The translations under genes and the position numbers were made by a program. DNA of 64,000 nt from an uncultured Rivularia sp. (GTDB lineage: Bacteria > Cyanobacteriota > Cyanobacteriia > Cyanobacteriales > Nostocaceae), in the NCBI GenBank assembly GCA_963665115.1, contig OY762007.1, positions 2,336,001 through 2,400,000 of the forward strand. Direction: 5' to 3'. The notes under the pieces are model-generated. The model searched no databases. It was not told the origin of the DNA and was given only the letters and a program-made list of their open reading frames with translations. Positions 1-36,680 of this stretch are shown in pieces. The number at the start of each line of letters is the position of its first letter. Within the stretch, counting starts at the first letter, position 1.

Positions 1-196
1 TGTAGCTACAGCAGATAGTTCTATGCAGCAAGCTCAAAACTGTGAATTTTAAAGAAAGTGCTGGCGTTAAATCAACAACACCTGTTCGCAAAATCTCCGA
101 ATCGAAACTTCCAAAAAATAATTTATCCTGCCGTAGAAAGTATCTTGCTCCCTGGATGCCTCAAGCTAGCTTTCCGCGCTCGCACTATCCAATCTG

Positions 197-462: not shown

Positions 463-921
463 TCATGCTTGCGATTTGTTTTGATTTCTGGTGGAAAGCC
501 CCATCGACTTAAGCAAACGAGTAATGTGGTAGTTACTAAAACTGATGCCTAATTCTTTTGCAAGATGTTTGTTTAACCATTGTGCCGTCCAACGTTCAAA
601 CGCATAACCGTACTCTCGCGGACTATTAGTTACAAGTTCTTTCAAACGTTGAGTATACTGTTCGTTGACGACTTTTGGTCTTCCAATCGGGGAATCATTC
701 CACTTATAAAACTGACCTGTTTTTACGATACAAATCCAGCATCGTGCAGCTTCTTGAGAGCAGCCTAATTTTTTGCATATTTGTGCCTGTGATTCACCAG
801 CGTCTGCAAGTAACATGATGTGAATACGACGACGAAATTCTGGACGTAAATCATGCTCAAGATTTTTTTGCAATAACTGACGTTGGCAAGATGTTAAGAA
901 TAAACTTTGAGCGACTTTCAT
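463..921 (-). CDS. Helix-turn-helix protein related to the IS630 transposase N-terminal (winged HTH) region, no DDE domain
   Basis: RRRIHIMLLADAG..QAQICKKLGCS..ARCW, GRP, and P..YGY...RWTAQWLNKHL...GIS motifs. 152 aa, and no catalytic ORF follows. Confidence 0.75.
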   Translation of the reverse strand: MKVAQSLFLTSCQRQLLQKNLEHDLRPEFRRRIHIMLLADAGESQAQICKKLGCSQEAARCWICIVKTGQFYKWNDSPIGRPKVVNEQYTQRLKELVTNSPREYGYAFERWTAQWLNKHLAKELGISFSNYHITRLLKSMGLSTRNQNKSQA

Positions 922-1197
922 TGTTTCTCCCTGGAATACTTCGATCCAATAACTGATTTAGGACTTTTGTTTATATAAAAAGGTAATTAATGTTGAATAC
1001 AGATATGTACCCAACCTTAAGTAATACGAAAGTTCTATTCTCGTTATCAGATGTGATTACTTAGTTACTGCGTCGCTCAAACAAGTTTTTCGCTAATTAC
1101 AGCCTAAAAATCTTTTTCTCTTTAAAAGGAGAGGCTTGTATCCTTGGCTAAGGTTCGCAGTAAGCGATACATCATCTACTACGAACCTGTTAATTTT

Positions 1198-2127
1198 TTA
1201 AATCACAAAATATTCGCTGAGGCTTGCTTCTCCTAAAGCTATTTTGAGACTAAACCGCTCTCCAGGTTCGCCACTTAAATCTAACTTAATATGCTGATTC
1301 GATTGTTCTGTAGTTGTATTTATTATTGCTTGTTCGTACTCGTCAAACAGGATTATTTGCAAGTTTGCAGGTAAATAGTTTTGACTTAAGCTAGGTTTGA
1401 GTTCTATAAGAATATTAGTATTTGACTTTGATTCTGTGGTGATGGTAACAATCAAAGCTATTAATTCTTTGTGAGTTCCCAATTCTAAAAGTTTGCAGCG
1501 CTTCAAATTAGCTGCTTTAGATTTGCCTCTGAAAGCTAAAGCTGGCTGAGCGGCTCGTTCACCCAAAATTTCTACAGACTCCCAACCTGTTTCAAAAATA
1601 TTATTAAACCATTGACTGAGGTTCGCTAATGGTCTAAGTTTATGCAAATATGAGGGTAAAGCAAAAAGTGATTCTAGATCGTTTAGACTTAAATCGACTA
1701 TTGCTGCTGTATTTGGCTTAAATCCTCGTAATATAGCTTCTTTTTGCTTCTCATCAATTTCTACAACTACATAGCCAATCCTTTCCAGACCAACTGAAGG
1801 CGGAATCTCACAACTTAAAGCTCCCTTTTTAACAGGACGACATTCTAAAATACCTTTACCAGTAATCCATAAATCGGCTACGTCTTCAGTTAATCGTATC
1901 GAAGAGTTCCAACTATCTCCGGCTGTAATATTAGTGGAAATACCGATAATACGCAAATAATTATTAACAGCGCATACAGCAAGGGTATTTAGATAAACTT
2001 GTTGTGCCTTATTCGAGATTGGGTTAGGTTGCTCGTTAGCAAATTGCCGCGCGATGTGTAATATTTCTGTTGTTAAGGGTATCGGAATCGACCAATCCTC
2101 ATTTGAAAATTGGTTATTTGTATTCAT
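1198..2127 (-). CDS. DUF1822 family protein (putative anti-sigma partner)
   Basis: ARQFA..Q...KAQQVYLNTLAV.AV..YL, ADL...GKG.LECRPV, RIGYVVV, NLSQWF..IFE.GW, C-terminal GEPGERFSLKIALG..S..EYFVI. Confidence 0.85.
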   Translation of the reverse strand: MNTNNQFSNEDWSIPIPLTTEILHIARQFANEQPNPISNKAQQVYLNTLAVCAVNNYLRIIGISTNITAGDSWNSSIRLTEDVADLWITGKGILECRPVKKGALSCEIPPSVGLERIGYVVVEIDEKQKEAILRGFKPNTAAIVDLSLNDLESLFALPSYLHKLRPLANLSQWFNNIFETGWESVEILGERAAQPALAFRGKSKAANLKRCKLLELGTHKELIALIVTITTESKSNTNILIELKPSLSQNYLPANLQIILFDEYEQAIINTTTEQSNQHIKLDLSGEPGERFSLKIALGEASLSEYFVI

Positions 2128-2139
2128 GGTGCTTGTTTT

Positions 2140-2820
2140 TTAAGTATGTTTAGCGCTGCTAGGAAGAGTAGTTGAACCTTCAATATAACCTTGGGAAAAA
2201 CCGAATTCCCGCAGCAAAGGCAAGCATCTACGGTTGTAAAATTTGGGTAAATCTTTTGCTTCCTGTGGATTTAGGTTAAATTCTGCCGCAATAGTTTTCC
2301 AGGAAAGCGTATCTGGAGGAAGCCGCCTTAGAATTAAAGCTTGAGCGTTAATTTCCGGGCGTTTTCGGAAGCAAATACTGCTTAGTCGGTTGTCTGAATC
2401 TTTTTGCACCCATAGGATAGTTTTTTCCCAGATTTCCATAGCTGGTTGAATATCTGGAGAGGCAACTATATCATCTATCGGGTTATTTACTCCTTGTTCT
2501 GTTTGTTTTGCGATAAGAAATCGTCGTTGTTGTCTATATTTACCATCTCGCATTCTCCTCAATCGCTTTTTAAGTTCATCATCAAGCCAAACAATCGGAC
2601 CTTTGATATCCGGATTGTATTCTTCTAGATGTTCGCAACAATACTCCCACATTTCTTGGAGAGCATCATTATAGTACGATGTATGTTCTTTCCAAAGCTT
2701 GCCAGATTTCATTACTAACAGATGCACCTTAGCCAACACTTGCTGACGCTCCAAGCTTTGGGGTGGATATTCACAGGCAGTAGTAATAAGTTGGCGGAGT
2801 TTTAAATCTAGCTCGTTCAT
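2140..2820 (-). CDS. Divergent sigma-70-like factor of the type found next to DUF1822
   Basis: LRQL...AC..PPQSLERQ..L, SGKLW, YNDALQE.W.Y.C...EEY.P (region-2-like) and a C-terminal HTH SWKTIAAEF...FYNRRCLP.LREFG. Lies 12 bp upstream of the DUF1822 gene. Confidence 0.7.
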   Translation of the reverse strand: MNELDLKLRQLITTACEYPPQSLERQQVLAKVHLLVMKSGKLWKEHTSYYNDALQEMWEYCCEHLEEYNPDIKGPIVWLDDELKKRLRRMRDGKYRQQRRFLIAKQTEQGVNNPIDDIVASPDIQPAMEIWEKTILWVQKDSDNRLSSICFRKRPEINAQALILRRLPPDTLSWKTIAAEFNLNPQEAKDLPKFYNRRCLPLLREFGFSQGYIEGSTTLPSSAKHT

Positions 2821-3242
2821 AGAATTATATACGAAAATGTTTTACATTACCCTTAAAAAGTGACGTATTAAAAAATACAGAAACTGCCAATTCAGAGTTT
2901 GTAATGACACTTATTGAAAATACACTTTCGTATATTATTATTCCGCGCTAGCTTAAAGAACGATATCTATAATGGACTCTTTTTTATCCTCACTACTACC
3001 TTTGTTTAGTTACTACGATTAACATAGAGGTTTTTCGCAGATTTTTGTTAATTATTTTTTAATTGGGGATTGGTGTTTGGATAATTATTTCAGTGGTAAG
3101 TATGCTCAAGTCTCGATAAAAATCACTGAAATAGTTAGCATATAGGGATTTCTACACTCAATGGTTAAGATTATTAATTACTTCCTTCCCGCTCTATAAT
3201 TACCTATCTCTCTTGTCTTGAAAAGTTGTTCTCGAAGAGATT

Positions 3243-3422
3243 GCCTCCGGCTCACATGGGGGAAACCACGCCACTTCTCTCAACGCGCTTATCCCGCGCA
3301 CGAGAGTGGCTCCCCAAAACGGACACCTTATGTCCAATAGCCCTATGTCCTCCGGACAGGCTAAGCTAACAGGCATAGCCTTCGGCAACGGACACGCACC
3401 GCTAACGCTGCGCTCTCTGCGT
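3243..3422. repeat. GC-rich nest of very small dispersed repeats (SDR-like elements)
   Basis: acgccacttctctcaacgcgcttatcccgcgcacgagagtggct hairpin inside gggggaaacc..cccc, plus nested tgtcc..ggaca(g/c)gc..gctaac units, in an otherwise AT-rich intergenic region. Confidence 0.6.
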
Positions 3423-3636
3423 CTAGTAAAGTTTTATTATACGTAATCATAAAGCCCGGAAAGGAGTAGTATCAATATTAAAGAAAGTTTCAAAGTCGAA
3501 AATAGACGTTGTTTGATGGATAAGATGTAGTAGTGTTTATGCGTTCACCGCAAGCTGTTCTGCAAGGCAATGTGGGGCAGGGATTATATTTACCAGATTC
3601 TTTATAATTCATGCTGTAAAATATTTTTTTAAGATA

Positions 3637-4845
3637 ATGAGACTTAAAGCATTTAATCATATAACAGGCTTTTTTCAGGAGAAAACTGTTGACTTTGAAG
3701 AAGAAAATCTATCTAAATGTCTTATTGGGAGACATCCAAATTGTGATTTTATTATTAATAGTCCTGAAGTAAGTCGGGTACATGGTATTATTTTGTATCA
3801 ACATGAAAATTATTATTATATTGACCTTGCCAGTACCGATGCCTCTCGCATTAATAATCAAACTATTTTCGTAAATCAAAGTTCTCTTTTGCAATTAGAT
3901 GACGTAATTCGGATTGGGAATTTTGTTGTTTTCCTGGAATTTGATAACACAAATTTGGATTTCGACAGCGATATTTTTTTCAATTCAGAAACACCGATCG
4001 CTCAAACTCCAATTCAACAGCAGCCTCAGCAGGGAGAATTTATAGTTAGATGCTCTAATATTATTCAAGAAACAGATAATGTCAAAACATTTTGTTTGAT
4101 TGCAGAACCGCCTATTTTATTTAACGGTATATCATTTAACTATAAACCGGGGCAGTTTACGATGTTAGACTTAGAAATTGGGGATAAACGAATAAAACGT
4201 CCTTACTTTATTTCTTCAAGTCCTTCACGGCCTTATAACTTAGAAATAACTGTTAAGCGCTTTTCTCCATCAACTTTTCAACCAGATTTAACTTTAGGCT
4301 TAGTTGCTAATTGGTTGTACGATTATTTAAAAGTTGGAGATAAGCTTAAAATAAGTCCGCCAATGGGCGATTTCAATTATTTTGAAAATTCTTATAAGAA
4401 ACTTTTATTTATCTGTTCTGATATCGGGATTACACCTTTGATGTCTATGTCTCGTTGGCTTTGCGATACTAATACCGATTTTTCGGTAATTCTTATATAC
4501 AGTGCCCGCACGCAAAAAGACATTATCTTCCGAGAAGAGTTAGAATTGATGGCTTTAAGATATCCTAATTTCAAGTTAGCGATTAATTTAACTAGTCAAG
4601 ACTTTGATTTAAGTTGGTCTGGATATAGGGGCAGATTGAATGAGACAATGCTATCAGAAATCGCTCCCGACTTGAAAGAACGTGTTGCCTATGTTTGCGG
4701 ATCTGAAAGTTTTATTGAAAGCGTTAAAATGACGTTAGAAGAGCTACAATTCCCAATGCATAATTATTATCCAGAAAGTTTTATATCGAAAGGTACTAAA
4801 CCCGCTTTAACAATAAAGGTAAAGGGTAATAAGTTTATATTTTGA
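3637..4845 (+). CDS. FHA domain fused to an FAD/NAD(P)-binding ferredoxin-reductase-type oxidoreductase (no C-terminal 2Fe-2S domain)
   Basis: FHA: IGRHPNCD..SPEVSRVHG..DLAS..SRIN. FNR-type: YKPGQF, RPYFISSSP, ITVKR, GITPLMSM, YSART, YVCG. Confidence 0.85.
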   Translation: MRLKAFNHITGFFQEKTVDFEEENLSKCLIGRHPNCDFIINSPEVSRVHGIILYQHENYYYIDLASTDASRINNQTIFVNQSSLLQLDDVIRIGNFVVFLEFDNTNLDFDSDIFFNSETPIAQTPIQQQPQQGEFIVRCSNIIQETDNVKTFCLIAEPPILFNGISFNYKPGQFTMLDLEIGDKRIKRPYFISSSPSRPYNLEITVKRFSPSTFQPDLTLGLVANWLYDYLKVGDKLKISPPMGDFNYFENSYKKLLFICSDIGITPLMSMSRWLCDTNTDFSVILIYSARTQKDIIFREELELMALRYPNFKLAINLTSQDFDLSWSGYRGRLNETMLSEIAPDLKERVAYVCGSESFIESVKMTLEELQFPMHNYYPESFISKGTKPALTIKVKGNKFIF

Positions 4846-5046
4846 AGGTAATAAATGAACATATATTGAATTCAAAATAAAAAATGCAAAATAAAAAATC
4901 AATTATATCTCAATTTTTAATTGTTCAATTAAGGATACAAGTTTCTTCTTTTAAGGAGAAAAAGATAAAAACGTATTATGACGCTTCAAGCCTCAGACTT
5001 TAGGTAATGGTAATTTCTAATTCTAAAATCCAAAATTGAATGGCTG

Positions 5047-7350
5047 ATGAGAAAATTAGTAGTGTTGAAACTTGATGGTGATTTGCGATCGCAAGTGCGA
5101 GTCACGTTAGAAATTGGTTACGAAGGGGCACGTCCAATTACGGAGGTTGCTTGTACCTTACCTGCCATGCCGCAGATGGTAAAAGCAATTGATGAATGGT
5201 ACTCGCTAAGCGGTAGTTTAAGTCAATTTACCCGTATTAAGGTTAATAAAATCGTTTATGGCTCTCTGTCCGAAAATAGGCGAGATTGCTATAAAAAAGC
5301 CTGCGAGTTACGTAATTATCTGAATGAATGGCTGATGTGCGATTCGTTTCGTCCGATTCGTGAAAAGTGGCTGAAATATTTGATGCCATCGGATGAAATA
5401 CGAGTATTAATTAGCACGAATAATCTACAGCTTAAAAAACTTCCCTGGCATTTATGGGATTTGGTCGATCGCGATTATCCCAAAGCTGAAATTACTTTGA
5501 GTGCTTATAATTCAGATCGAATACAGGTGCCGCAGACATCTATCTATGGAAAGAAAATTAAGATTTTAGCTATTTTAGGTAACAGCGATGGAATTGATGT
5601 CAGACAAGATAGAGAGTTGTTAGAAAATTTAAAAAATGCGGAAACAACTTTTTTAGTACAACCTCAACGACAAGAAATAAACGAACAGCTATGGAATCAA
5701 AATTGGAATATTTTATTTTTTGCCGGTCATAGTCAGACTGAAGACAATACGGGTAGAATCTATATTAATCAAGAAGATAGCCTGACAATTGCAGAACTTA
5801 GGTATGCTTTAAAAAATGCTGTTAATAACGGTTTGCAGTTAGCAATTTTTAATTCTTGCGATGGATTGGGATTGGTGAGCGAGCTACAAGATTTGTGTAT
5901 TGGGCAAATTATTGTCATGAAGGAACCAGTACCGGATTTTGTTGCTCAACAATTCTTAAAGTATTTTCTGACAACTTTTTCTGCTGGAGAGTCTATATAT
6001 ATTGCGGCTCGTAAAGCTAGAGAAAAATTACAAGGTTTAGAAGCAGAATATCCTGGTGCTAGCTGGCTGCCGATAATATGCGAACATTCCACAATTAAAC
6101 CGATGCAGTGGAAGCTAAGGGTTAATTCTCTAAAGAATTGCTTTAAAACATTGGTTTTAGCCAGTTTGTTAATGACAAGTTTAGTCGTGGGAGTACGGCG
6201 ACTGGGATTTCTGGAAAAATGGGAGCTACAGAATTACGATTTATTAATGCGATCGCGTCCCGATGAAGGACCTTCGGAAAGGTTATTGGTGGTGGGAATT
6301 AGAGAAACAGATTTTCAGCTACCCGAACAAAAAGATAGAAAAGGGTCTTTAGCTGATGGTGCATTACACAAGTTGTTACAAAAGCTTGAACCTCATCAAC
6401 CCAGAGCGATCGGGTTGGATATCTTTCGCGATTTTCCGGTAGACTCCGAACAACAACAATTAAAAACTCAATTAATAAAGAGCGATCGTTTTTTTGCAAT
6501 ATGTCATGTAGGGGAACCGAACGGAGAATCTCAGGGAATAGCACCTCCTCCAGAAATACCGGAACAGCGTCTTGGTTTCAGTAACGTTCTGCTTGATGAT
6601 GATGGTATTTTACGTCGTTACATTCTATCAATGGATGTAAGGAGTAGCTCGAATTGTCCTACTACCTGGTCTTTTGGTTTTCAATTGGCACTACATTATT
6701 TAAAAGATGAAGGAATTGCACCAAAATTTAACCAGGGAAATTGGCAATTAGGTGATGTTGTTTTTACACGTTTAAAACAACTTAATGGTGGCTATCAAAC
6801 AGCAGATACTTGGGGAAATCAGATATTACTTAATTATCGTTCCTATCGTTCTCCCAACCAAATTACCGATATAGTCTCTCTCGAAGATGTCTTAGCGGGT
6901 AGGCTGGCACCGGAACAAATCAAAGATAAGATTATTATTATTGGTGTAATGACTTCAACTTCCAGCGACCATTTTCGCACTCCTTACAGCGAGAAATTAC
7001 CACCATCTCAACAATACACTCCAGGAGCAATAGTACACGCTCAAATAGCTAGCCAGATACTGAATTCAGTGTTAGATAAACGTCCTTTGTTATCGGCAAT
7101 ATCACTTTGGGGAGAAATATTGTGGATTGGGACTTGGAGTTTTATTGGAGGAATTTTAGCTTTGCGGATTCGTTCGTTACGTTTATTAGTAGGTGCTAAT
7201 TTAATTGCTATTATAATTATATACGGAGCCTGCCTTGTTCTATTTATCAAAGGTGTTTGGTTGCCACTAATTCCGTCAAAATTAACACTGTTGTCAACTA
7301 CAGGATGTTTGGTAATTGTTTATAAATATAAACCACAACTGCGACTTTAA
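5047..7350 (+). CDS. CHAT (caspase-like) protease - TM - CHASE2 sensor - 3 TM membrane protein
   Basis: LPWHLW, FFAGHS (His codon 5728-5730), AIFNSCDG (Cys codon 5857-5859), VMKEPVPD..AQQFL. Hydrophobic segment, then CHASE2 motifs RAIGLDIFRD, GFSNV..D.DG.LRR, PGAIVHAQ, then C-terminal TMs. Confidence 0.88.
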   Translation: MRKLVVLKLDGDLRSQVRVTLEIGYEGARPITEVACTLPAMPQMVKAIDEWYSLSGSLSQFTRIKVNKIVYGSLSENRRDCYKKACELRNYLNEWLMCDSFRPIREKWLKYLMPSDEIRVLISTNNLQLKKLPWHLWDLVDRDYPKAEITLSAYNSDRIQVPQTSIYGKKIKILAILGNSDGIDVRQDRELLENLKNAETTFLVQPQRQEINEQLWNQNWNILFFAGHSQTEDNTGRIYINQEDSLTIAELRYALKNAVNNGLQLAIFNSCDGLGLVSELQDLCIGQIIVMKEPVPDFVAQQFLKYFLTTFSAGESIYIAARKAREKLQGLEAEYPGASWLPIICEHSTIKPMQWKLRVNSLKNCFKTLVLASLLMTSLVVGVRRLGFLEKWELQNYDLLMRSRPDEGPSERLLVVGIRETDFQLPEQKDRKGSLADGALHKLLQKLEPHQPRAIGLDIFRDFPVDSEQQQLKTQLIKSDRFFAICHVGEPNGESQGIAPPPEIPEQRLGFSNVLLDDDGILRRYILSMDVRSSSNCPTTWSFGFQLALHYLKDEGIAPKFNQGNWQLGDVVFTRLKQLNGGYQTADTWGNQILLNYRSYRSPNQITDIVSLEDVLAGRLAPEQIKDKIIIIGVMTSTSSDHFRTPYSEKLPPSQQYTPGAIVHAQIASQILNSVLDKRPLLSAISLWGEILWIGTWSFIGGILALRIRSLRLLVGANLIAIIIIYGACLVLFIKGVWLPLIPSKLTLLSTTGCLVIVYKYKPQLRL

Positions 7351-7494
7351 GATAGTTCCAACTTACGGTTGATATCGCTCGGAGTAAAATTTTTATACAA
7401 TGTGCAGGGAATAGAGATGTACGCTTATTTTTTTGAAGCGTAGAACGCATACTATACCTTTCAGAATATGCACAATAGCCCTATGTAATTGATT

Positions 7495-8361
7495 ATGCTT
7501 AAAAACCAATACTATCAGCAATTATTAAAGTTTTTATTTGTAACAAATTTAATATTTATAAATTCCATACCCGTTACTGCTCAAAAAACAAATCCATCTA
7601 CAAATAGAAAAACAAATAATACATCCCAACCAAATAAAAAGAAACCAGAAAATAGAAATAACTTTAATCGAAAGCGTCATCAAGAAACACCCCCACGCAG
7701 TAGAGTCCGTGGGAACTCTGTATACTTTAGACAACCCCAAAGGCAAGGAACACCACAAGGTACGAGAGCAGCAGGAAGTCGTAATAGTTGTCCAATAGCA
7801 GAAGAAATGCCACTGAGCGCTTTAGTACCGATTACGAAAAAAGCAGATGGAAGAGAATTACGTTGGGGGTTAACAACGAAAGAAAATCCAACATTTTGGT
7901 TTTACGTTCCCCATAAATTAAAATCTATAAAAAATGCTAAATTTTCTTTACGAAATCGGCGAAACAACACGATTTACGAAAAAGAATTACAGCTGGCTGA
8001 TACACCGGGATTAATTAGCGTTTCCCTTCCAGCTAATGCACTATCTTTAAAAGTTGGTGAATGGTATCAATATTATTTATTTATGGATATTGACTGTAAT
8101 TTAAACAGATCTCGTAAAGAATTCGCTCAAGCATGGGTGAAAAGAGAAGCAATTGCTTCTGGTTTTGAATCTAAATTGGAAAGAATATCTCCACGTCAGC
8201 GAGGATTATTCTACGCAAAAAATGGTATTTGGTATGATGCGATGGTATCTTTTGCCAAACTTAAATATGCATCTGGAACAAACTCAGAGTGGATGCAAAT
8301 GTTAGACTCGATCGGTTTAAGTGAATTTTCTCAGATACCAGTAATTGATTGCTGTAAGTAA
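7495..8361 (+). CDS. Secreted DUF928 domain protein
   Basis: Signal-peptide-like N-terminus; G...AAGSR..C, L.ALVP, WGLTT.ENPTFWFYVP, YAKNGIWYDA, W..ML.SIGL, C-terminal CC. Confidence 0.88.
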   Translation: MLKNQYYQQLLKFLFVTNLIFINSIPVTAQKTNPSTNRKTNNTSQPNKKKPENRNNFNRKRHQETPPRSRVRGNSVYFRQPQRQGTPQGTRAAGSRNSCPIAEEMPLSALVPITKKADGRELRWGLTTKENPTFWFYVPHKLKSIKNAKFSLRNRRNNTIYEKELQLADTPGLISVSLPANALSLKVGEWYQYYLFMDIDCNLNRSRKEFAQAWVKREAIASGFESKLERISPRQRGLFYAKNGIWYDAMVSFAKLKYASGTNSEWMQMLDSIGLSEFSQIPVIDCCK

Positions 8362-21554: not shown

Positions 21555-21752
21555 ACATGATTAAAATCTTTTGCCAACCCTAGATGCATAACTAGAAGAA
21601 TTATTTAGCCCAGTCTATGCCTAAGCTTAGTTTTCCCAAAAGGGTGACGAAGATAACAAATTTTGCTAAAAATCATGTTTGGGGATTGGGGATTGGGGAT
21701 TGGAAGTTAGGAGTTGAAACATTAAACCGTAGTGGGAGCGTCTCGCTCCCTC

Positions 21753-21992
21753 GTGGAATTATCGCGCAGCATCTCGTCACGTCTCGTTGCTACTTGGTGG
21801 AATTATCGCGCAGCATCTCGTCACGTCCCCCGTTGCTACTTGGTGGAATCATCGCGCAGCGTCTCGTCTCGTCGCTCCCTCGTGGAATCATCGCGCAGCG
21901 TGCCGTCGCGTCGCTACTTGGTGGAATCATCGCGCAGCATCTCGTCGCGTCGCTACTTGGTGGAATCATCGCGCAGCGTGCCGTCGCGTCGC
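21753..21992. repeat. GC-rich tandem array, six units with constant core GTGGAATYATCGCGCAGC
   Basis: Units start at 21753, 21797, 21843, 21882, 21921 and 21960 (44, 46, 39, 39, 39 bp, last partial). Flanked by inverted GTAG REPs at 21729-21750 and 22035-22056. Confidence 0.9.
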
Positions 21993-30694: not shown

Positions 30695-31990
30695 ATGCGT
30701 CCTATTGCTGTAGATTTGTTTGCGGGTGCGGGGGGAATGACTTTGGGTTTTGAACAAGCTGGTTTTGATGTGCTTGCTGCTGTAGAATTAGATCCGATTC
30801 ACTGTGCTATTCATGAATTTAATTTTCCGTTTTGGTCTACTTTGTGTGCGAGTGTAGATAAGATTTCGGGTAAGAAAATTAGAAGACTTTCAAAAATTAA
30901 AAAGAAAGAAATTGATGTTGTATTTGGTGGTTCTCCTTGTCAGGGTTTTTCGATGATGGGAAAACGGGCTTTAGATGACCCCAGAAACGCTTTGGTATTT
31001 CATTTTTTGCGATTAATTTTAGAGCTACAGCCAAAATATTTTGTATTTGAGAATGTACCGGGTTTAACTGTCGGAGAACATCGAAAGTTTTTATTAGAAG
31101 TAATTGAAGAGTTTGAAAAAAACGGTTATCGAGTAGAAGCTAATTACCAAGTTCTCAACGCCGCAAATTACGGAGTTCCTCAAGATAGAGCAAGATTATT
31201 TATTTTAGGATGCCGTCAAAATTTAAAGTTACCAAAATATCCCCAGCCACTGACAACACCTAAAATATCTAAGAAATCAAAATATATTGTAAATAAACCA
31301 GATTTACCAGCAACACCTACAGTGTGGGATGCTATTGCCGATTTACCAGAAGTTGAAAATTACGCCGAATTGATGGAGCGAGATTGGGCGATCGCTAAAT
31401 ATGGAAAACCTAGCGATTACAGCAGTAAGTTGCGCGGTATTTCATCAATTGAAAATGATTATTCTTACGAACGATTATTTGATAATTATTTTCTAACTTG
31501 CAGTACTCGTACAAAACATAGCTCGCAATCTATCGAAAGATTTAAAAAAACCGAACCAGGAAAAACCGAACCTGTAAGCCACTTTCATAAATTAGCAGCA
31601 AACGGCATTTGCAAAACCTTAAGGGCTGGAACACCGAGAAATCGTGGTGCTTTCACCTCTCCTCGTCCAATTCATCCCAAAACACCAAGATGTATTACCG
31701 TTAGAGAAGCAGCACGTTTGCATTCCTACCCCGACTGGTTTCGCTTTCACCTGACAAAATGGCATGGATTCCGACAAATAGGAAACTCAGTTCCACCTTT
31801 ATTAGCAAAGGCGATCGCTACAGAAATTATTCACGCTTTAGAAATAATTCCAGTTAAACCAGAGCAGAGACAGCCATTGGGTGATGATAGTTTATTGCAA
31901 TTAAATATGTCTCAAGCTGCTGAAAAATTCGGTGTTAATGAAAATATTATTGAGCGGAGGAAAAGGAAGAAGGTTAGTAAAGAAGTTTGA
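30695..31990 (+). CDS. DNA (cytosine-5) methyltransferase, no adjacent endonuclease
   Basis: Motif I DLFAGAGG, IV GGSPCQGFS, VI FENVPG, VIII PQDRAR, IX/X REAARLHSYP..QIGNSVPP. Confidence 0.95.
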   Translation: MRPIAVDLFAGAGGMTLGFEQAGFDVLAAVELDPIHCAIHEFNFPFWSTLCASVDKISGKKIRRLSKIKKKEIDVVFGGSPCQGFSMMGKRALDDPRNALVFHFLRLILELQPKYFVFENVPGLTVGEHRKFLLEVIEEFEKNGYRVEANYQVLNAANYGVPQDRARLFILGCRQNLKLPKYPQPLTTPKISKKSKYIVNKPDLPATPTVWDAIADLPEVENYAELMERDWAIAKYGKPSDYSSKLRGISSIENDYSYERLFDNYFLTCSTRTKHSSQSIERFKKTEPGKTEPVSHFHKLAANGICKTLRAGTPRNRGAFTSPRPIHPKTPRCITVREAARLHSYPDWFRFHLTKWHGFRQIGNSVPPLLAKAIATEIIHALEIIPVKPEQRQPLGDDSLLQLNMSQAAEKFGVNENIIERRKRKKVSKEV

Positions 31991-31993
31991 TTA

Positions 31994-32130
31994 TCGCGTT
32001 TATCAAGCAACTGAGGTACAGCAATTACCTCACCCCCGATAAAGCTGCGCTTTATCTCCCCTCTCCTTGTTAAGGAGAGGGGTTGGGGGTGAGGTTTTGA
32101 GATATACCTCACGCTTATTGGGAAACGCTA
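31994..32130. mobile_element. Second copy of the TAGCG-ended MITE (inverted, left end degenerate)
   Basis: TA|tcgcgtttatc...ctcccctctccttgttaaggagaggggttgggggtgaggttttgagatatacct...gggaaacgcta|TA; reverse-complement match to 24895-25007. Confidence 0.75.
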
Positions 32131-32147
32131 TAATGTGAATTTGATTT

Positions 32148-35100
32148 TTAATTTCTCCATTGTAAACGCTCTAACCATCGCTCTGCTGTGCTTCGCACAT
32201 CAGAATCATCATCAGTTGTGGCTTGTTTAAGGATATTTAAAGTCTCGGGGTTATCCTTGAAGCCATCGGCTAATTCTCCTACTGCTATACGTCGCACAAT
32301 ACAATCATCATCAGTTGTGGCTTGTTTAAGAATAGTCAAAGTATCGGGGTCATTCTTGAAGCCACTAGCTAATTCTTCTAACGCTGTGATTCGTAAATTA
32401 TAATCATCATCAATGGTAGCTTGTTTGAGAATAGTCAAAGCATCGGGGTTGTCTTTGAAGACACGGGCTAATTCTTGTAATGCTGTACATCGCACATACT
32501 CATACTCATCATCATCAGTAGTTGCTTGTTGAAGAATATTTAAGGTATCGGGGTCATCTTTGAAATTACGGGCTAATTCTTGTACTGCTATGCGTCGCAC
32601 AATAAAATCATCATCAGTGGTAGCTTGTTTGAGAATAGTTAAAGTATCGGGGTTATCTTTGAAGCCATAGGCTAGTTCGTGTACTGCTGCACTTCGTACA
32701 TCAGAATTATTATCATTTGTAGCTTGTTTAAGCCAATTTAAGGTATCAGGGTCATCTTTGAAGTTAACAGCTAATTCGTGTACTGCTGCATTTCGCACAT
32801 GCTCATCCTTATCAGTGGTAGCGCATTGTTTAAGGATAATTGAGGTATTAGAGTCATCTTTAAAACCACGGGCTAATTCTTCTATTGCTGACCATCGCAC
32901 AATAAAATCATTATCAGTAGTAGCGTATTGTTTAAGGATATTTAAAGCATCGCGGTCATCCTTCCAAGCATTAGCAACTGCTTTAACAGTTCGAGTACGA
33001 ATGTTGGTAATTCTACCGTTATCTTCCAAGAATATTGATGTTCTGCAAATACCATAATTAACTAACTCCTTAAGCTCAACTAATAGCTGCTTGTCGGTAG
33101 ATAAAATTACTTTTCTATTCCTCACCTCTGCCAAACAATCAGTTGCTAAAAACAAATTAACAAATTTCTCTTCTTCCCCATCTATACTGATTAAATGCTG
33201 AATTATATTTTCCACAAATTTAGCATCAATCATCCCGGCAATTAATCGCAAAACTTCATGCCAAGATTCATCCATCCAATGCTTGTCAACAACTTCTGCA
33301 ATCAATTGTTTAATTGTCAAAGTTTGGGTTTCTTTAAACTGCCAAACAAACTCCCAAGCACAGAAATATTCTAAAAACGTGCGATGTACAAACGCATAAT
33401 AATCTGCACCCAAATAACACAACATAAAGTTGCGCGTCCTGAGTTGATTTATGATTAATTTAGCAGCATCTCTTGGCTTATCAAATTCTATGGTTTTTAA
33501 ATAATCTTGAAGAATTTTTTGTAAATCGCTTTCTTTAATCAAATTACCAGCTAAACCTTTATCTTCAGTTTGCATAGAATAGGCAACTTGACGCAACATT
33601 GCCTGTTTATCTTTATAATCAATGCTTGCCAAATCTAATCTTTTATCTTGAATTAAAGTGCGTTCAACATCCCATTGATGCAGCAATACTTTAGAAGCTT
33701 GATTGTAAAGCTCGGCTCTATCTCTTGGTAATTCTTGGTTGCGGTTAAGAATTGCCATCATTGTTAATAGTAAGGGATTTCCGGCTAAGTCCTGAATTGC
33801 TGGTAAATCATCAATTGCTTTTTGCAGTCTTTCTTTTTTTCTAATTTTATCTGCTTCGTCACCGGAACTAAAAGTTTTATTGTGCCATTTGTGAATAAAT
33901 ATTCTAATTTGTTCTGCATCTAAATCTTGCAACATGAAGTGAGTAAATTCGGCATCGCGCAGTCTTTGGGGTTTATAACCAACTATGCGAGAAGTGACGA
34001 TTACCTGTACCCGAGGATAATTATTCGTGAAGCGATGAATAGCGGTAATTACTTCTTCTCGTTGTGCTGAATCGAATACTTCATCTAAACCATCAAACAT
34101 TACTAAAGCATTTCCAGCTTTTAATTGTTCTTCTAGTTTGTGTTGGTTGAGATGACAAATACAATTCGGGCTTTTGTGGAAAAACTCCAGAAAATCTTGA
34201 CAACTTCCAGCAGTGCGATCGCGTGCGTAAGTGCGTAGTTCAATTAATAAAGGAATTGGTTGAGATAATGGTTCTTTATCAAGAGTATTTTCGACCCAAT
34301 TTAATGCAAAATATTGTAATAAAGTTGATTTACCAGAACCGGGGTCCCCTAAAATAACTATATAATTTTTCCTGCTATATTGTGATTCATCTTGAATAAT
34401 TTCTATCACCGAACGATTTGCTTGTTCGATGTAGCTGCTTTTATACCTTTCTAATTCTTCTTCTATTCTTTCTAAATTAATTCCTGCATCTAATTGGTTA
34501 CTTTCTTGCAGTCTCTTGAGATATTCCCTGGGTAATTCCGGTAAAACCCGATCTATTTGCCGCGCATTTTGAGGAATAAATATATCCCATAACCCCAAAC
34601 GATTGTAAGCGCTAGCATCAGCATCTAAACTATCCAGCTTTAAATTGACATAACGTTCCCGAATTGCTTCTTGGTATTTCCTCAAATCAAAGTCTTTGGA
34701 TAAACCAGCAATTTCTTTGGTGTTTTCAGCAATACTAGTAAGCTTTTGTAATTCGAGAATGTGTCGTAACTCTTCTAACTCGGAAATATTTTCCTGGACT
34801 TTTAATAAATATTGCTCGATAACGCTTTGCCAATTAAACTTTGGCGGTAACAATTTGAGGTGCAAATCTCGCCAACGTTGCTTAAAAATTTCAGCGTCTA
34901 AATCCTCACAATCAATATTAAAAGCCTTTCCAAGATTTTCTTTTACCGTTTTATCCCCAATAAACTTCTTTATATCTTGGCTATATGCTTTAATCTCCTC
35001 ATCATTTAACTTGCAACGAATTTTTAATTGCTGCTGTACAAGCTTTAAAAACTCAATTAGCGCCATTGCTACAGTTTTTTGAAAAGGTTCTTGTTGAAAT

Positions 35101-35258
35101 GGTTTGATTGCCAGATTTCCCAACTTACCAGGAAGGTACTTGCAAAAATCTTTACCGTATTCCTTAATTAAATCCTTAACAAAATCTTCGCTAAAAATCG
35201 TCTTAAAAACCAAGCCAGCAGCTTTTGTAGTTACCCAACCAAGAAGCAATTCCACCAT
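32148..35258 (-). CDS. NACHT (STAND) NTPase with C-terminal HEAT repeats
   Basis: Walker A GDPGSGKST, Walker B LVMFDGLDE, VTSR, GNPLLL, FVHRTFLEYF; about eight ~37-aa HEAT-like repeats. Confidence 0.93.
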   Translation of the reverse strand: MVELLLGWVTTKAAGLVFKTIFSEDFVKDLIKEYGKDFCKYLPGKLGNLAIKPFQQEPFQKTVAMALIEFLKLVQQQLKIRCKLNDEEIKAYSQDIKKFIGDKTVKENLGKAFNIDCEDLDAEIFKQRWRDLHLKLLPPKFNWQSVIEQYLLKVQENISELEELRHILELQKLTSIAENTKEIAGLSKDFDLRKYQEAIRERYVNLKLDSLDADASAYNRLGLWDIFIPQNARQIDRVLPELPREYLKRLQESNQLDAGINLERIEEELERYKSSYIEQANRSVIEIIQDESQYSRKNYIVILGDPGSGKSTLLQYFALNWVENTLDKEPLSQPIPLLIELRTYARDRTAGSCQDFLEFFHKSPNCICHLNQHKLEEQLKAGNALVMFDGLDEVFDSAQREEVITAIHRFTNNYPRVQVIVTSRIVGYKPQRLRDAEFTHFMLQDLDAEQIRIFIHKWHNKTFSSGDEADKIRKKERLQKAIDDLPAIQDLAGNPLLLTMMAILNRNQELPRDRAELYNQASKVLLHQWDVERTLIQDKRLDLASIDYKDKQAMLRQVAYSMQTEDKGLAGNLIKESDLQKILQDYLKTIEFDKPRDAAKLIINQLRTRNFMLCYLGADYYAFVHRTFLEYFCAWEFVWQFKETQTLTIKQLIAEVVDKHWMDESWHEVLRLIAGMIDAKFVENIIQHLISIDGEEEKFVNLFLATDCLAEVRNRKVILSTDKQLLVELKELVNYGICRTSIFLEDNGRITNIRTRTVKAVANAWKDDRDALNILKQYATTDNDFIVRWSAIEELARGFKDDSNTSIILKQCATTDKDEHVRNAAVHELAVNFKDDPDTLNWLKQATNDNNSDVRSAAVHELAYGFKDNPDTLTILKQATTDDDFIVRRIAVQELARNFKDDPDTLNILQQATTDDDEYEYVRCTALQELARVFKDNPDALTILKQATIDDDYNLRITALEELASGFKNDPDTLTILKQATTDDDCIVRRIAVGELADGFKDNPETLNILKQATTDDDSDVRSTAERWLERLQWRN

Positions 35259-35370: not shown

Positions 35371-36680
35371 GTACTTCACCACATTAATTTTGCGGGGTAC
35401 ACGGCTGTGCAATCGCCCTAAAAGTAGTAAGCTATATTTTAAAGCATCTATAGCGAAATTGTCTGCATCTACTCGTTATGTCCAAGAAGTACATCATTAA
35501 CTTAAATATCTCAGAAAGAGAGCAATTAGAGCAACAGAGTAAGAAAGGAAAAATTTCGGCAAGAAAATACAAACGTATACAGGTTCTATTGATGTCAGAA
35601 AGTGGGTATTCTGATGTTGAAATAGCAACAGCGTTAAAAATAAGCGTAGATACAATAGAACGAACTCGTAAAAAATTTGTGCAATCAGGGTTGGCAGAGG
35701 CACTGAACGAGAAACCACGACCAGGTAAACCAAAAAAACTAATTGGTTCACATGAAGCATTTTTAATTGCAACCGCTTGTAGTAACCCACCTGAAGGACG
35801 AAGTAATTGGACAATGCAATTACTAGCTAACAAGTTGGTACAACTATCAGTTGTCGATAATATTAGTGATGAAACTGTACGTCGAACTCTAAAAAAAACG
35901 ACTTAAAACCGTGGTTAGTCGAACAATGGTGTATTCCCACAGTTAGTGCAGAATATGTGTGGCGGATGGAAGATGTTTTAGATGTATACGCTCGAAGTTC
36001 AAACCCAAAACGCCCAATCATATGTTTTGACGAGCGCCCAACACAATTACTCAGTAATACTAAAGTCCCGATACCAGTTAAACCAAAGCAAAAAAGACGT
36101 GTCGATTATGAATACGAACGTATGGGAAATTGTAATTTATTCGTATTTTTAGAACCTCGCATCGGTTGGCGACACGTTGAAGTCACAGACCGCAGAACAG
36201 CTATAGATTTTGCTCACTGCATGAAGGATTTAGTTGACATTTATTATTCAAATTCTGAGTTAATAACAGTTGTTATGGACAACTTAAATACTCATAGCCC
36301 AGCATCTTTATATAAAGCATTTGCCCCCGAAGAAGCAAAAAGAATTCTAAATAAATTGGAATTTCACTATACACCGAAGCATGGCAGTTGGTTAAATATG
36401 GCAGAAATTGAATTATCAATTCTTTCACGTCAATGCTTAAATCGTCGCATTCCAAATCAAGAAATTATCTTTGAAGAAATTGCTGCTTGGGAAGAAGTAA
36501 GAAATCAAGAAAAAGCAACTGTAGAGTGGCAGTTTACAACTGATAATGCCCGCGTTAAATTGAATAAACTATATCCAAAAATTGAAATTGTAGATGATAG
36601 CTGTGAAAATAATTCACAGTCAATAAATAGTGAGGCGATCGCACAGTCGTGTACCCCGCAAAATTAATGTGGTGGAATAC
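35371..36680 (+). mobile_element. IS630 family insertion sequence, apparently intact
   Basis: About 47-bp imperfect TIRs (gtacttcaccacattaattttgcggggtacacggctgtgcaatcgcc vs gtattccaccacattaattttgcggggtacacgactgtgcgatcgcc), TA duplications at 35369-70 and 36681-82, two-ORF transposase. Confidence 0.95.
35478..36667 (+). CDS. IS630 transposase expressed via -1 frameshift at A8 (35891-35898)
   Basis: OrfA HTH ends ...RRTLKK; the -1 frame continues NDLKPWLVEQWCIP. DDE motifs CFDE, VMDN, NMAE. Confidence 0.92.

Follow-up and report, generated by a model that had tools for sequence, protein, structure and literature searches.

Filamentous cyanobacteria encode many caspase-like CHAT proteins for which, to our knowledge, no substrates are known. 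A locus in an uncultured Rivularia sp. raises the question of whether one such protease controls a sigma factor. Near the start of a 64,000-nt stretch of contig OY762007.1 (positions 2,336,001-2,400,000 of the forward strand; hereafter the window, in whose own numbering coordinates are given unless the contig is named), the genes for a sigma-like protein and a DUF1822 protein diverge from those for a membrane protein that combines a CHAT protease with a CHASE2 sensor and for a DUF928 protein (Table 1). We lean towards an answer in which the sensor-gated CHAT protease cuts DUF1822, an anti-sigma factor, and frees the sigma factor for promoters of the form GCGAAA-N19/20-TAAC. All four genes lie where a first-pass annotation of this DNA had placed them, with a 12-bp gap between the sigma-like and DUF1822 genes and with profile support for the divergent CHAT-CHASE2 and DUF928 genes; that annotation had left out a gene for an oxidoreductase with an FHA domain and one for a stand-alone helix-turn-helix (HTH) protein.

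Linkage of the cassette and the sigma-like protein

Of 558 loci that encode a relative, we annotated the best 80, using profiles built from the sequences of this analysis. Because the genomes are kin, the resulting counts describe conservation rather than independent trials, and no statistical test is attached to them. A DUF1822 gene directly follows the sigma gene in all 78 loci with room for one. The gene for the protease, in which CHAT is preceded by a putative EACC2 domain (see below), comes next in 52 of the 69 loci with room, co-directionally and in many genera, and lies elsewhere in the locus in 9 others. The usual order is co-directional: sigma, DUF1822, protease, DUF928 and then a TPR-CHAT or TPS gene. 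TPR-CHAT genes, whose products mostly have signal-peptide-like N-termini, occur in 29 and TPS genes in 22 of the 80 loci. Linkage of the four genes, on which the first-pass proposal hinged, is conserved across cyanobacteria in this set and goes well past what chance would give. Rivularia and Calothrix are the sources of close homologues. One record titled Candidatus Gracilibacteria (L050) bears a typical cyanobacterial cassette and is likely to be a binning contaminant.

In the window, the sigma and protease genes are instead divergent and 2.2 kb apart, with the oxidoreductase gene between them. This layout, oxidoreductase included, is found in 8 of the 80 loci, all from the Rivularia clade, and is therefore likely to be a derived rearrangement. 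It could also be taken to mean that sigma-DUF1822 and CHAT-CHASE2-DUF928 are separate modules, loosely clustered in islands of secretion genes; DUF928 pairs with CHASE2 proteins lacking CHAT as well, and an EACC2-CHAT gene, with varied C-terminal sensors, directly follows 5 of the 12 DUF1822 genes of this genome and is not the next gene after 6 of them. We consider such independence very improbable, given the co-directional order of sigma, DUF1822 and EACC2-CHAT in 52 of 69 loci from many genera and the persistence of the linkage both through the inversion in the 8 Rivularia-clade loci and where CHASE2 is replaced by other sensors.

All 12 DUF1822 genes of the genome directly follow a same-strand gene for a sigma-like or large HTH-type protein. 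Five of the preceding genes are small and of the extracytoplasmic function (ECF)-like kind, three are larger with TIGR02937 matches and four are unclassified; sigma-profile support, direct or via the family, covers 8 of the 12. The four unclassified genes encode proteins of 439-523 aa without a clear family match, which may constitute a further hidden sigma-like class.

Neither Pfam nor NCBIfam gives a sigma match for the 226-aa protein of the window itself. Its structural model (81 sequences; predicted local distance difference test score, pLDDT, 85) retrieved almost exclusively sigma factors in Foldseek, with weak scores (E about 0.1). Re-alignment, restricted to Foldseek's own matches, placed residues 1-96 on region 2 of Escherichia coli sigmaE (1or7; Z 11.6, root-mean-square deviation [rmsd] 1.6 Å, 87 aa) and residues 122-214 on region 4 of SigL (3hug; Z 6.5). 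In addition, four of the four orthologues tested match TIGR02937 below its curated cut-off (best E 8.6e-9), 20 of the 81 alignment members match Sigma70_r2 at E up to 0.1, and the family aligns over 97% of its length with a paralogue that matches TIGR02937 at 1.6e-9. The sigma2 and sigma4 folds, without which the earlier sigma assignment was to be dropped, are both found in the model, and the protein is likely to be a divergent ECF (group 4)-type sigma-like factor, predicted to bind RNA polymerase and initiate transcription. Sequence searches of solved structures returned nothing useful for this protein, DUF1822, DUF928, EACC2-CHAT or CHASE2; the integrase and designed-protein matches among the results are due to chance.

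DUF1822 as a candidate substrate

The AlphaFold2 model of DUF1822 (150 sequences, pLDDT 91, predicted template modelling score 0.81) has an alpha/beta domain at its N-terminus, followed by a beta-sandwich at the C-terminus. In structural alignments the best three matches of the N-domain are PD-(D/E)XK nucleases, all with modest scores: I-Ssp6803I (2ost; Z 8.8, rmsd 3.0, 112 aligned), a Holliday-junction resolvase (1ob8; Z 8.7) and Hjc (1gef; Z 8.0). The C-domain matches Ig-like folds with Z up to 7.8 (DUF3244 Ig-like). As modelled, DUF1822 combines a restriction-endonuclease-fold N-domain with an Ig-like domain.

Four residues of the N-domain are nearly or fully invariant among the 150 sequences (D85 in 148, E95 in 149, C96 in 150 and R97 in 140), and D85 and E95 sit on the strands expected for motifs II and III. 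We take D85, E95 and R97 to be the motif II/III positions of the PD-(D/E)XK signature, with Arg where the catalytic Lys would be expected; that Lys is missing from motif III, Arg standing there in 140 of 150 sequences. The first helix, on which N47 and V51 presumably correspond to the acidic position of the PD-(D/E)XK motif, has no conserved acidic residue. A D...D-x-R signature is kept in five of five distant homologues and lost in all three large-type paralogues aligned.

Such a domain might be expected in a defence or cell-death module in which DUF1822 is a latent nuclease effector that the protease activates and that the sigma factor holds or induces. The nature of the three top fold matches (Z 8.0-8.8) and the near-invariance of D85 and E95 would fit, protease-activated death effectors, one of them a nuclease, are described as widespread in passages of 10.1101/2025.11.14.688446, and PMC8195603 puts the family among conflict systems. 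We nevertheless regard a nuclease effector as distinctly improbable: Arg replaces the catalytic Lys, the first helix lacks its acid, large-type paralogues do not keep the triad, the fold Z scores barely exceed background level and PADLOC had no match for the five proteins scanned.

The evidence for cleavage comes from a loop. Residues 190-206 are disordered in the model (pLDDT <50 at 192-197), and within them R200 is present in 141 of the 150 sequences and in 70 of 76 within the loci set, with an entropy of 0.4 bit versus 2.1-3.8 for the surrounding residues 189-208. Because it is near-invariant in a variable, disordered loop, R200 is likely to be the P1 residue of a predicted DUF1822 cleavage. 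The two-domain model and this Arg together lend indirect support to DUF1822 as a cleavable partner. Putative R|G cleavage sites have been described for a bacterial caspase-like protease (passages of 10.1101/2025.11.14.688446).

The evidence for a sigma partner comes from gene order. DUF1822 matches were found in 139 of 201 genomes sampled across the phylum. In a small-genome family of the same phylum, weak matches were found in 71 of 82; in all three neighbourhoods read from these distant genomes the N-domain, without the Ig domain, starts a protein of ~1000-1130 aa with one strong transmembrane (TM) segment, whose gene lies directly upstream of a Sigma70_r4 gene, with no CHAT gene apparent. 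A gene directly before a sigma gene, with a single-TM product, is the usual layout of membrane anti-sigma factors. These neighbourhoods link the domain with sigma factors and not with the protease, and DUF1822 is a probable sigma partner because it directly follows sigma in 78 of 78 loci and because even protease-free homologues have a sigma neighbour. In the three small-genome loci (L134:3949-7994, L135:4120-7936 and L136:3710-7378) the DUF1822-like N-domain is followed by a long acidic linker and the TM segment, and in two of the three the fusion protein also has a TonB-C domain.

The same counts bear on the reading in which the protease cuts itself, as an autopeptidase, or cuts the sigma factor directly, DUF1822 being an uncut adaptor or protease inhibitor. 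Autopeptidase activation is proposed in passages of PMC8195603, and there is a precedent in PCaspase, which cleaves PCc-sigma and is inhibited by PCi (passages of 10.1101/2023.06.23.546230); R200 could then be the bait residue of an inhibitor. We judge this quite unlikely, since the linkage of DUF1822 to sigma (78/78) is tighter than its linkage to the protease (61/69) and since N-domain homologues lie beside sigma genes in loci without an apparent CHAT gene.

Sensor, promoter-like motif and predicted circuit

The protease retains both catalytic residues of CHAT, as had been claimed: the codons of His228 and Cys271 lie at 5728 and 5857, and all 52 aligned relatives, picked by profile match and de-duplicated, keep the two residues. 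Since hydropathy analysis showed no N-terminal signal, one TM segment at residues ~365-387 and a hydrophobic C-terminus, CHAT is predicted to be cytoplasmic and CHASE2 extracytoplasmic, which agrees with the earlier proposal. Residues 1-150 are conserved across 10 paralogous loci of the genome and match unnamed Atlas clusters at 0.95; judging from the architecture, they form a putative EACC2 domain. Profile searches found no C-terminal output domain and no TPR in the protease. The sensor varies among the EACC2-CHAT paralogues of the genome, with a periplasmic binding domain or nSTAND1/WD40 in place of CHASE2. In several paralogous cassettes of this genome EACC2-CHAT is split by a frameshift or insertion (L003, L004, L011, L014), as is DUF928 in L006, which suggests turnover or assembly errors.

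The DUF928 protein has a hydrophobic stretch at residues 12-30 and is predicted to be secreted; it, too, matches unnamed Atlas clusters. Among the 47 full CHASE2 forms of the loci set, 31 are followed by DUF928, 12 (from Moorena, the Lyngbya group and one Symploca) are not, and 4 end too early to judge (31/43). For nine of the 13 DUF928 open reading frames (ORFs) of this genome a CHASE2 gene is no more than 3 kb away (random mean 0.2); 3 of the 9 CHASE2 genes concerned carry CHAT. DUF928 goes with CHASE2 sensors generally and not with this protease. It is a predicted partner of CHASE2, as had been suggested, and is missing after the receptor in 12 of 43 loci. Passages of PMC5192318 describe a secreted neighbour of proteobacterial CHASE2 kinases as well, a LysM-FecR protein.

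DUF928 also carries the motif G-x-P-x-x-R-x-x-G-G-S-R98-x-x-C101, with R98 in 27 and C101 in 29 of 31 sequences. The conservation of R98, the TPR-CHAT genes in 29 of 80 loci and one such gene ~9 kb before the window suggested a cascade of two caspases across the membrane, in which the secreted TPR-CHAT would cut DUF928 at G-S-R98 to yield the CHASE2 ligand, and the receptor CHAT would cut DUF1822 at R200, so that the nuclease-fold anti-sigma releases the hidden sigma. We think this unlikely; if true, it would be CRISPR-independent signalling with proteolysis at both ends and with many paralogous copies per cyanobacterial genome.

A de novo search of 44 non-redundant upstream regions yielded GCGA-N21-TAAC and overlapping patterns, far over background. 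The strict form RCGAAA-N19/20-TAAC has 103 matches in 1.25 Mb of loci, versus 9-18 expected from simulated sequence; 45 of them lie ahead of a sigma gene and 10 ahead of an HTH gene, and 47 of 78 sigma genes have one within 400 nt upstream. The window has two sites versus 0.35 expected (3 of 100 shuffles reach two), and nowhere else in the genome does a perfect intergenic site of the clade type lie close to where a gene starts. Among 30 loci picked with another sigma paralogue the motif was present in two, both in or beside the focal branch of an unsupported sketch tree, and no clear motif emerged from the mixed set of other sigma branches. A scan for the sigma-70 consensus was uninformative (21 sites versus 28 expected). 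Since a genome-wide weight-matrix scan gave 132 hits against a background of 53-85, about twofold, we claim no wider regulon. The simplest reading is that the motif is a promoter read by the sigma-like factor, although another clade-linked regulator might possibly read it. In other genera (L026-L030, L034, L039-L041, L050, L052) the motif precedes genes for a LuxR-like regulator, RTX-repeat proteins, exosortase O, and phosphoglycerate-mutase-like and unclassified proteins; the predicted regulon accordingly differs between lineages.

The HTH gene is syntenic in the 8 Rivularia-clade loci and may represent a transposase domain that was domesticated to serve as a regulator of the second tier. We rejected the alternative of a live IS630 element, as no transposase ORF follows the gene and as it is syntenic in relatives. 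In the Rivularia clade this IS630-like gene bears the motif, and so it does, in divergent orientation, in two Nostoc loci (L084, L092).

Sigma factors and their anti-sigma factors are typically co-transcribed from an autoregulated promoter. The predicted autoregulation of this operon fits such a pair, and this bears on yet another role for DUF1822, that of a co-factor or tether that stays on the sigma factor and is needed for promoter use. In that case the cut would let an active complex of sigma and N-domain leave the membrane protease. Several features would suit a co-factor: an N-domain folded like DNA-binding nucleases, a D-(D/E)-x-R site that even distant membrane-bound homologues retain, a highly divergent sigma and the absence of a known degron after R200. 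Given the predicted mode of transcription and the loss of the site in large-type paralogues, we hold that role to be unlikely.

In the circuit that we favour, with DUF1822 as the anti-sigma factor, an outside signal would act at CHASE2, whose state is set by the probably secreted DUF928. CHASE2 would switch on the cytoplasmic CHAT through dimerisation or a conformational change. DUF1822 would keep the sigma factor inactive, with the nuclease-fold domain on sigma and the Ig-like domain docked on the protease, until activated CHAT cuts it, probably after Arg200; the sigma-bound piece would then be degraded, as shown for CalpT (see below). The freed sigma would amplify its own operon through its own promoter in a positive feedback and would induce the HTH protein, an output of the second tier. 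Beyond gene anatomy and conservation every step is a prediction, that of binding being made from gene context.

Several observations weigh against this circuit. The D85/E95/R97 triad is conserved like a catalytic site, which a plain inhibitor would not need. A cut after R200 leaves ...LAFR, unlike the ...AA degron of CalpT, and in some paralogues this position holds K or lacks a clear basic residue (such as the paralogue of this genome at contig position 2878543). No EACC2-CHAT gene was seen nearby in 8 of 69 loci, the strict motif is missing upstream of 31 of 78 sigma genes, and the individual sigma fold matches are modest. Moreover, neither of the perfect sites of this genome precedes the protease, DUF928, TPS or TPR-CHAT genes.

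Table 1. Features of the locus, its flank and related genes (window coordinates unless marked as contig)
Feature	Position	Strand	Evidence
TPS-domain (filamentous-haemagglutinin-type) secreted protein gene, 1162 aa, 3' end	1..52 (contig 2332564-2336052)	+	PF05860, E 1.2e-53
Stand-alone HTH protein, 152 aa, resembles IS630 N-terminus	463..921	-	HTH_23/28/33; NF033545 partial, below cut-off
GCGAAA-N20-TAAC bipartite promoter-like motif, ~142 nt before HTH start	1064..1093	-	Pattern scan
DUF1822 protein, 309 aa, anti-sigma factor and substrate of the protease (both predicted)	1198..2127	-	PF08852, E 3.6e-58
Arg200 codon (A-L-A-F-R|G), candidate P1, loop 190-206 of DUF1822	1528..1530	-	Conservation and model
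D85...E95-C96-R97, nuclease-like active-site signature of DUF1822, Arg for usual Lys	1837..1875	-	Conservation
Divergent ECF-type sigma-like protein, 226 aa	2140..2820	-	sigma2 and sigma4 fold matches of model
GCGAAA-N20-TAAC bipartite promoter-like motif, ~188 nt before sigma start, predicted autoregulation	3009..3038	-	De novo motif
FHA and FAD/NAD-binding oxidoreductase, 402 aa	3637..4845	+	Profile search; outside conserved core
Receptor protease, 767 aa: EACC2-like N-domain, CHAT, TM, CHASE2, C-terminal TMs	5047..7350	+	CHAT E 1.4e-11, CHASE2 E 8.5e-58
DUF928 protein, 290 aa, predicted secreted, predicted CHASE2 partner	7489..8361	+	Profile, E 1.8e-46
Unclassified genes preceding DUF1822 paralogues	contig 1513203-1514636, 1275703-1277175, 1244925-1246496, 1607579-1608898		

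The locus is flanked by genes for TPS and TPR-CHAT proteins and for a peptidase. Just upstream of the window (contig 2324447-2336052) the genes converge on the HTH gene. This region includes the 851-aa TPR-CHAT protein ~9 kb before the window, which has a hydrophobic (signal-peptide-like) N-terminus and the dyad motifs, a TPS-like gene split in two ORFs (306 + 579 aa) that lies before the intact TPS gene, and a 562-aa ORF that is transposase-like in appearance. Farther into the window, a 39-46-nt repeat unit occurs six times at 21743-21990 and overlaps a doubtful ORF. From sequence reading, an ORF with a cytosine methyltransferase-like start converges at 30695-35258 on a 1036-aa protein with 33-aa repeats, after which comes a two-ORF IS630-like element (35478-36667).

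Known systems and meaning

The locus is a member of the set of EACC2-caspase, ECF sigma and DUF1822 neighbourhoods catalogued in silico in PMC8195603 (eLife 2021), whose passages describe proteins with EACC2, caspase, CHASE2 and TM regions and with ECF sigma and DUF1822 neighbours. It shares with them CHAT with its His-Cys dyad, the variable CHASE2/TM sensor and both neighbours. Those passages couple the proposed autopeptidase activation to the ECF sigma and label DUF1822 a TPR protein, a label that we rejected in favour of a modelled nuclease fold plus Ig domain; HEAT repeats occur in 6 of 150 members. The source table lists 'TM+beta_rich+TPRs' and 'TPRs+CASPASE' genes downstream, which are probably DUF928 and TPR-CHAT, respectively; section 9 of the paper leaves DUF928 unnamed and gives neither a role as anti-sigma factor nor a cleavage site, promoter or experiment. 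The first-pass annotation had treated the four-gene cassette as familiar but of no demonstrated mechanism: the cassette is in fact already catalogued, and a literature search largely outside subscription journals found no experimental study on DUF1822, DUF928, EACC2 or cyanobacterial CHAT + CHASE2 (passages of PMC5587647 and PMC9679502 included).

That annotation had also called the locus Craspase-like, which holds as an analogy. The type III-E CASP/Craspase system likewise has a CHAT protease and sigma sites within its own locus, with autoregulation described for CASP-sigma, and its Csx30 binds sigma through the N-domain and CHAT through the C-domain, which is cut in a small loop (passages of PMC10028731); DUF1822 is similarly two-domain, with putatively corresponding roles. 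However, Csx29 is a soluble, RNA-activated TPR-CHAT protein, whereas the protease here is a membrane receptor with the order N-domain, CHAT, TM, CHASE2. The window has no CRISPR array (the nearest array-like repeat is ~144 kb away) and the locus has no Cas7-11, for which no genome-wide search was made. CASP-sigma (NF041236) had no match over cut-off in the genome, the best weak match lying elsewhere, and neither profile nor structure searches matched DUF1822 to Csx30, although the two may be remotely related.

CalpL-CalpT-CalpS offers a second parallel: a soluble anti-sigma that joins a toxin- or nuclease-derived N-domain (MazF-like in CalpT) to a small C-domain and is cleaved where it is poorly structured, a site to which the DUF1822 loop may be likened, with an ECF sigma as output (passages of 10.1101/2024.05.08.593097). 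In contrast, CalpL is a Lon protease activated by cA4 via SAVED, and CalpT has another fold and exposes an LAA degron when cut; in profile searches none of the locus proteins showed a SAVED or Lon domain. In Myxococcus xanthus, DdvA-DdvS also couples a CHAT membrane protein to an ECF sigma without CRISPR activation, but DdvA fuses a zinc anti-sigma domain via a TM segment to a periplasmic TPR-CHAT and release is by RseP (passages of PMC11506125). The Rivularia locus has the inverse topology, with a cytoplasmic CHAT, a CHASE2 sensor and a soluble putative anti-sigma without such a fusion. In our best model the locus would work like Craspase or CalpLTS and belong to neither.

The system is real, conserved and computationally catalogued, with a predicted mechanism. 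What is new here is the recognition of sigma2 and sigma4 folds in the 226-aa protein, the fold correction for DUF1822, the candidate cut site, the promoter motif, the predicted two-gene local regulon and the tracking of CHASE2 by DUF928. Together, the fold, cut site, promoter and local regulon make the system directly testable, as the locus offers a named candidate substrate (DUF1822), residue (R200), catalytic mutant (C271A) and reporter (the GCGAAA-N19/20-TAAC promoter). If the predicted mechanism is true, two domains of unknown function would acquire roles, a nuclease fold would have been reused as an anti-sigma domain, and an ordinary receptor pathway would prove to use the protease/anti-sigma/sigma logic known from CRISPR systems.

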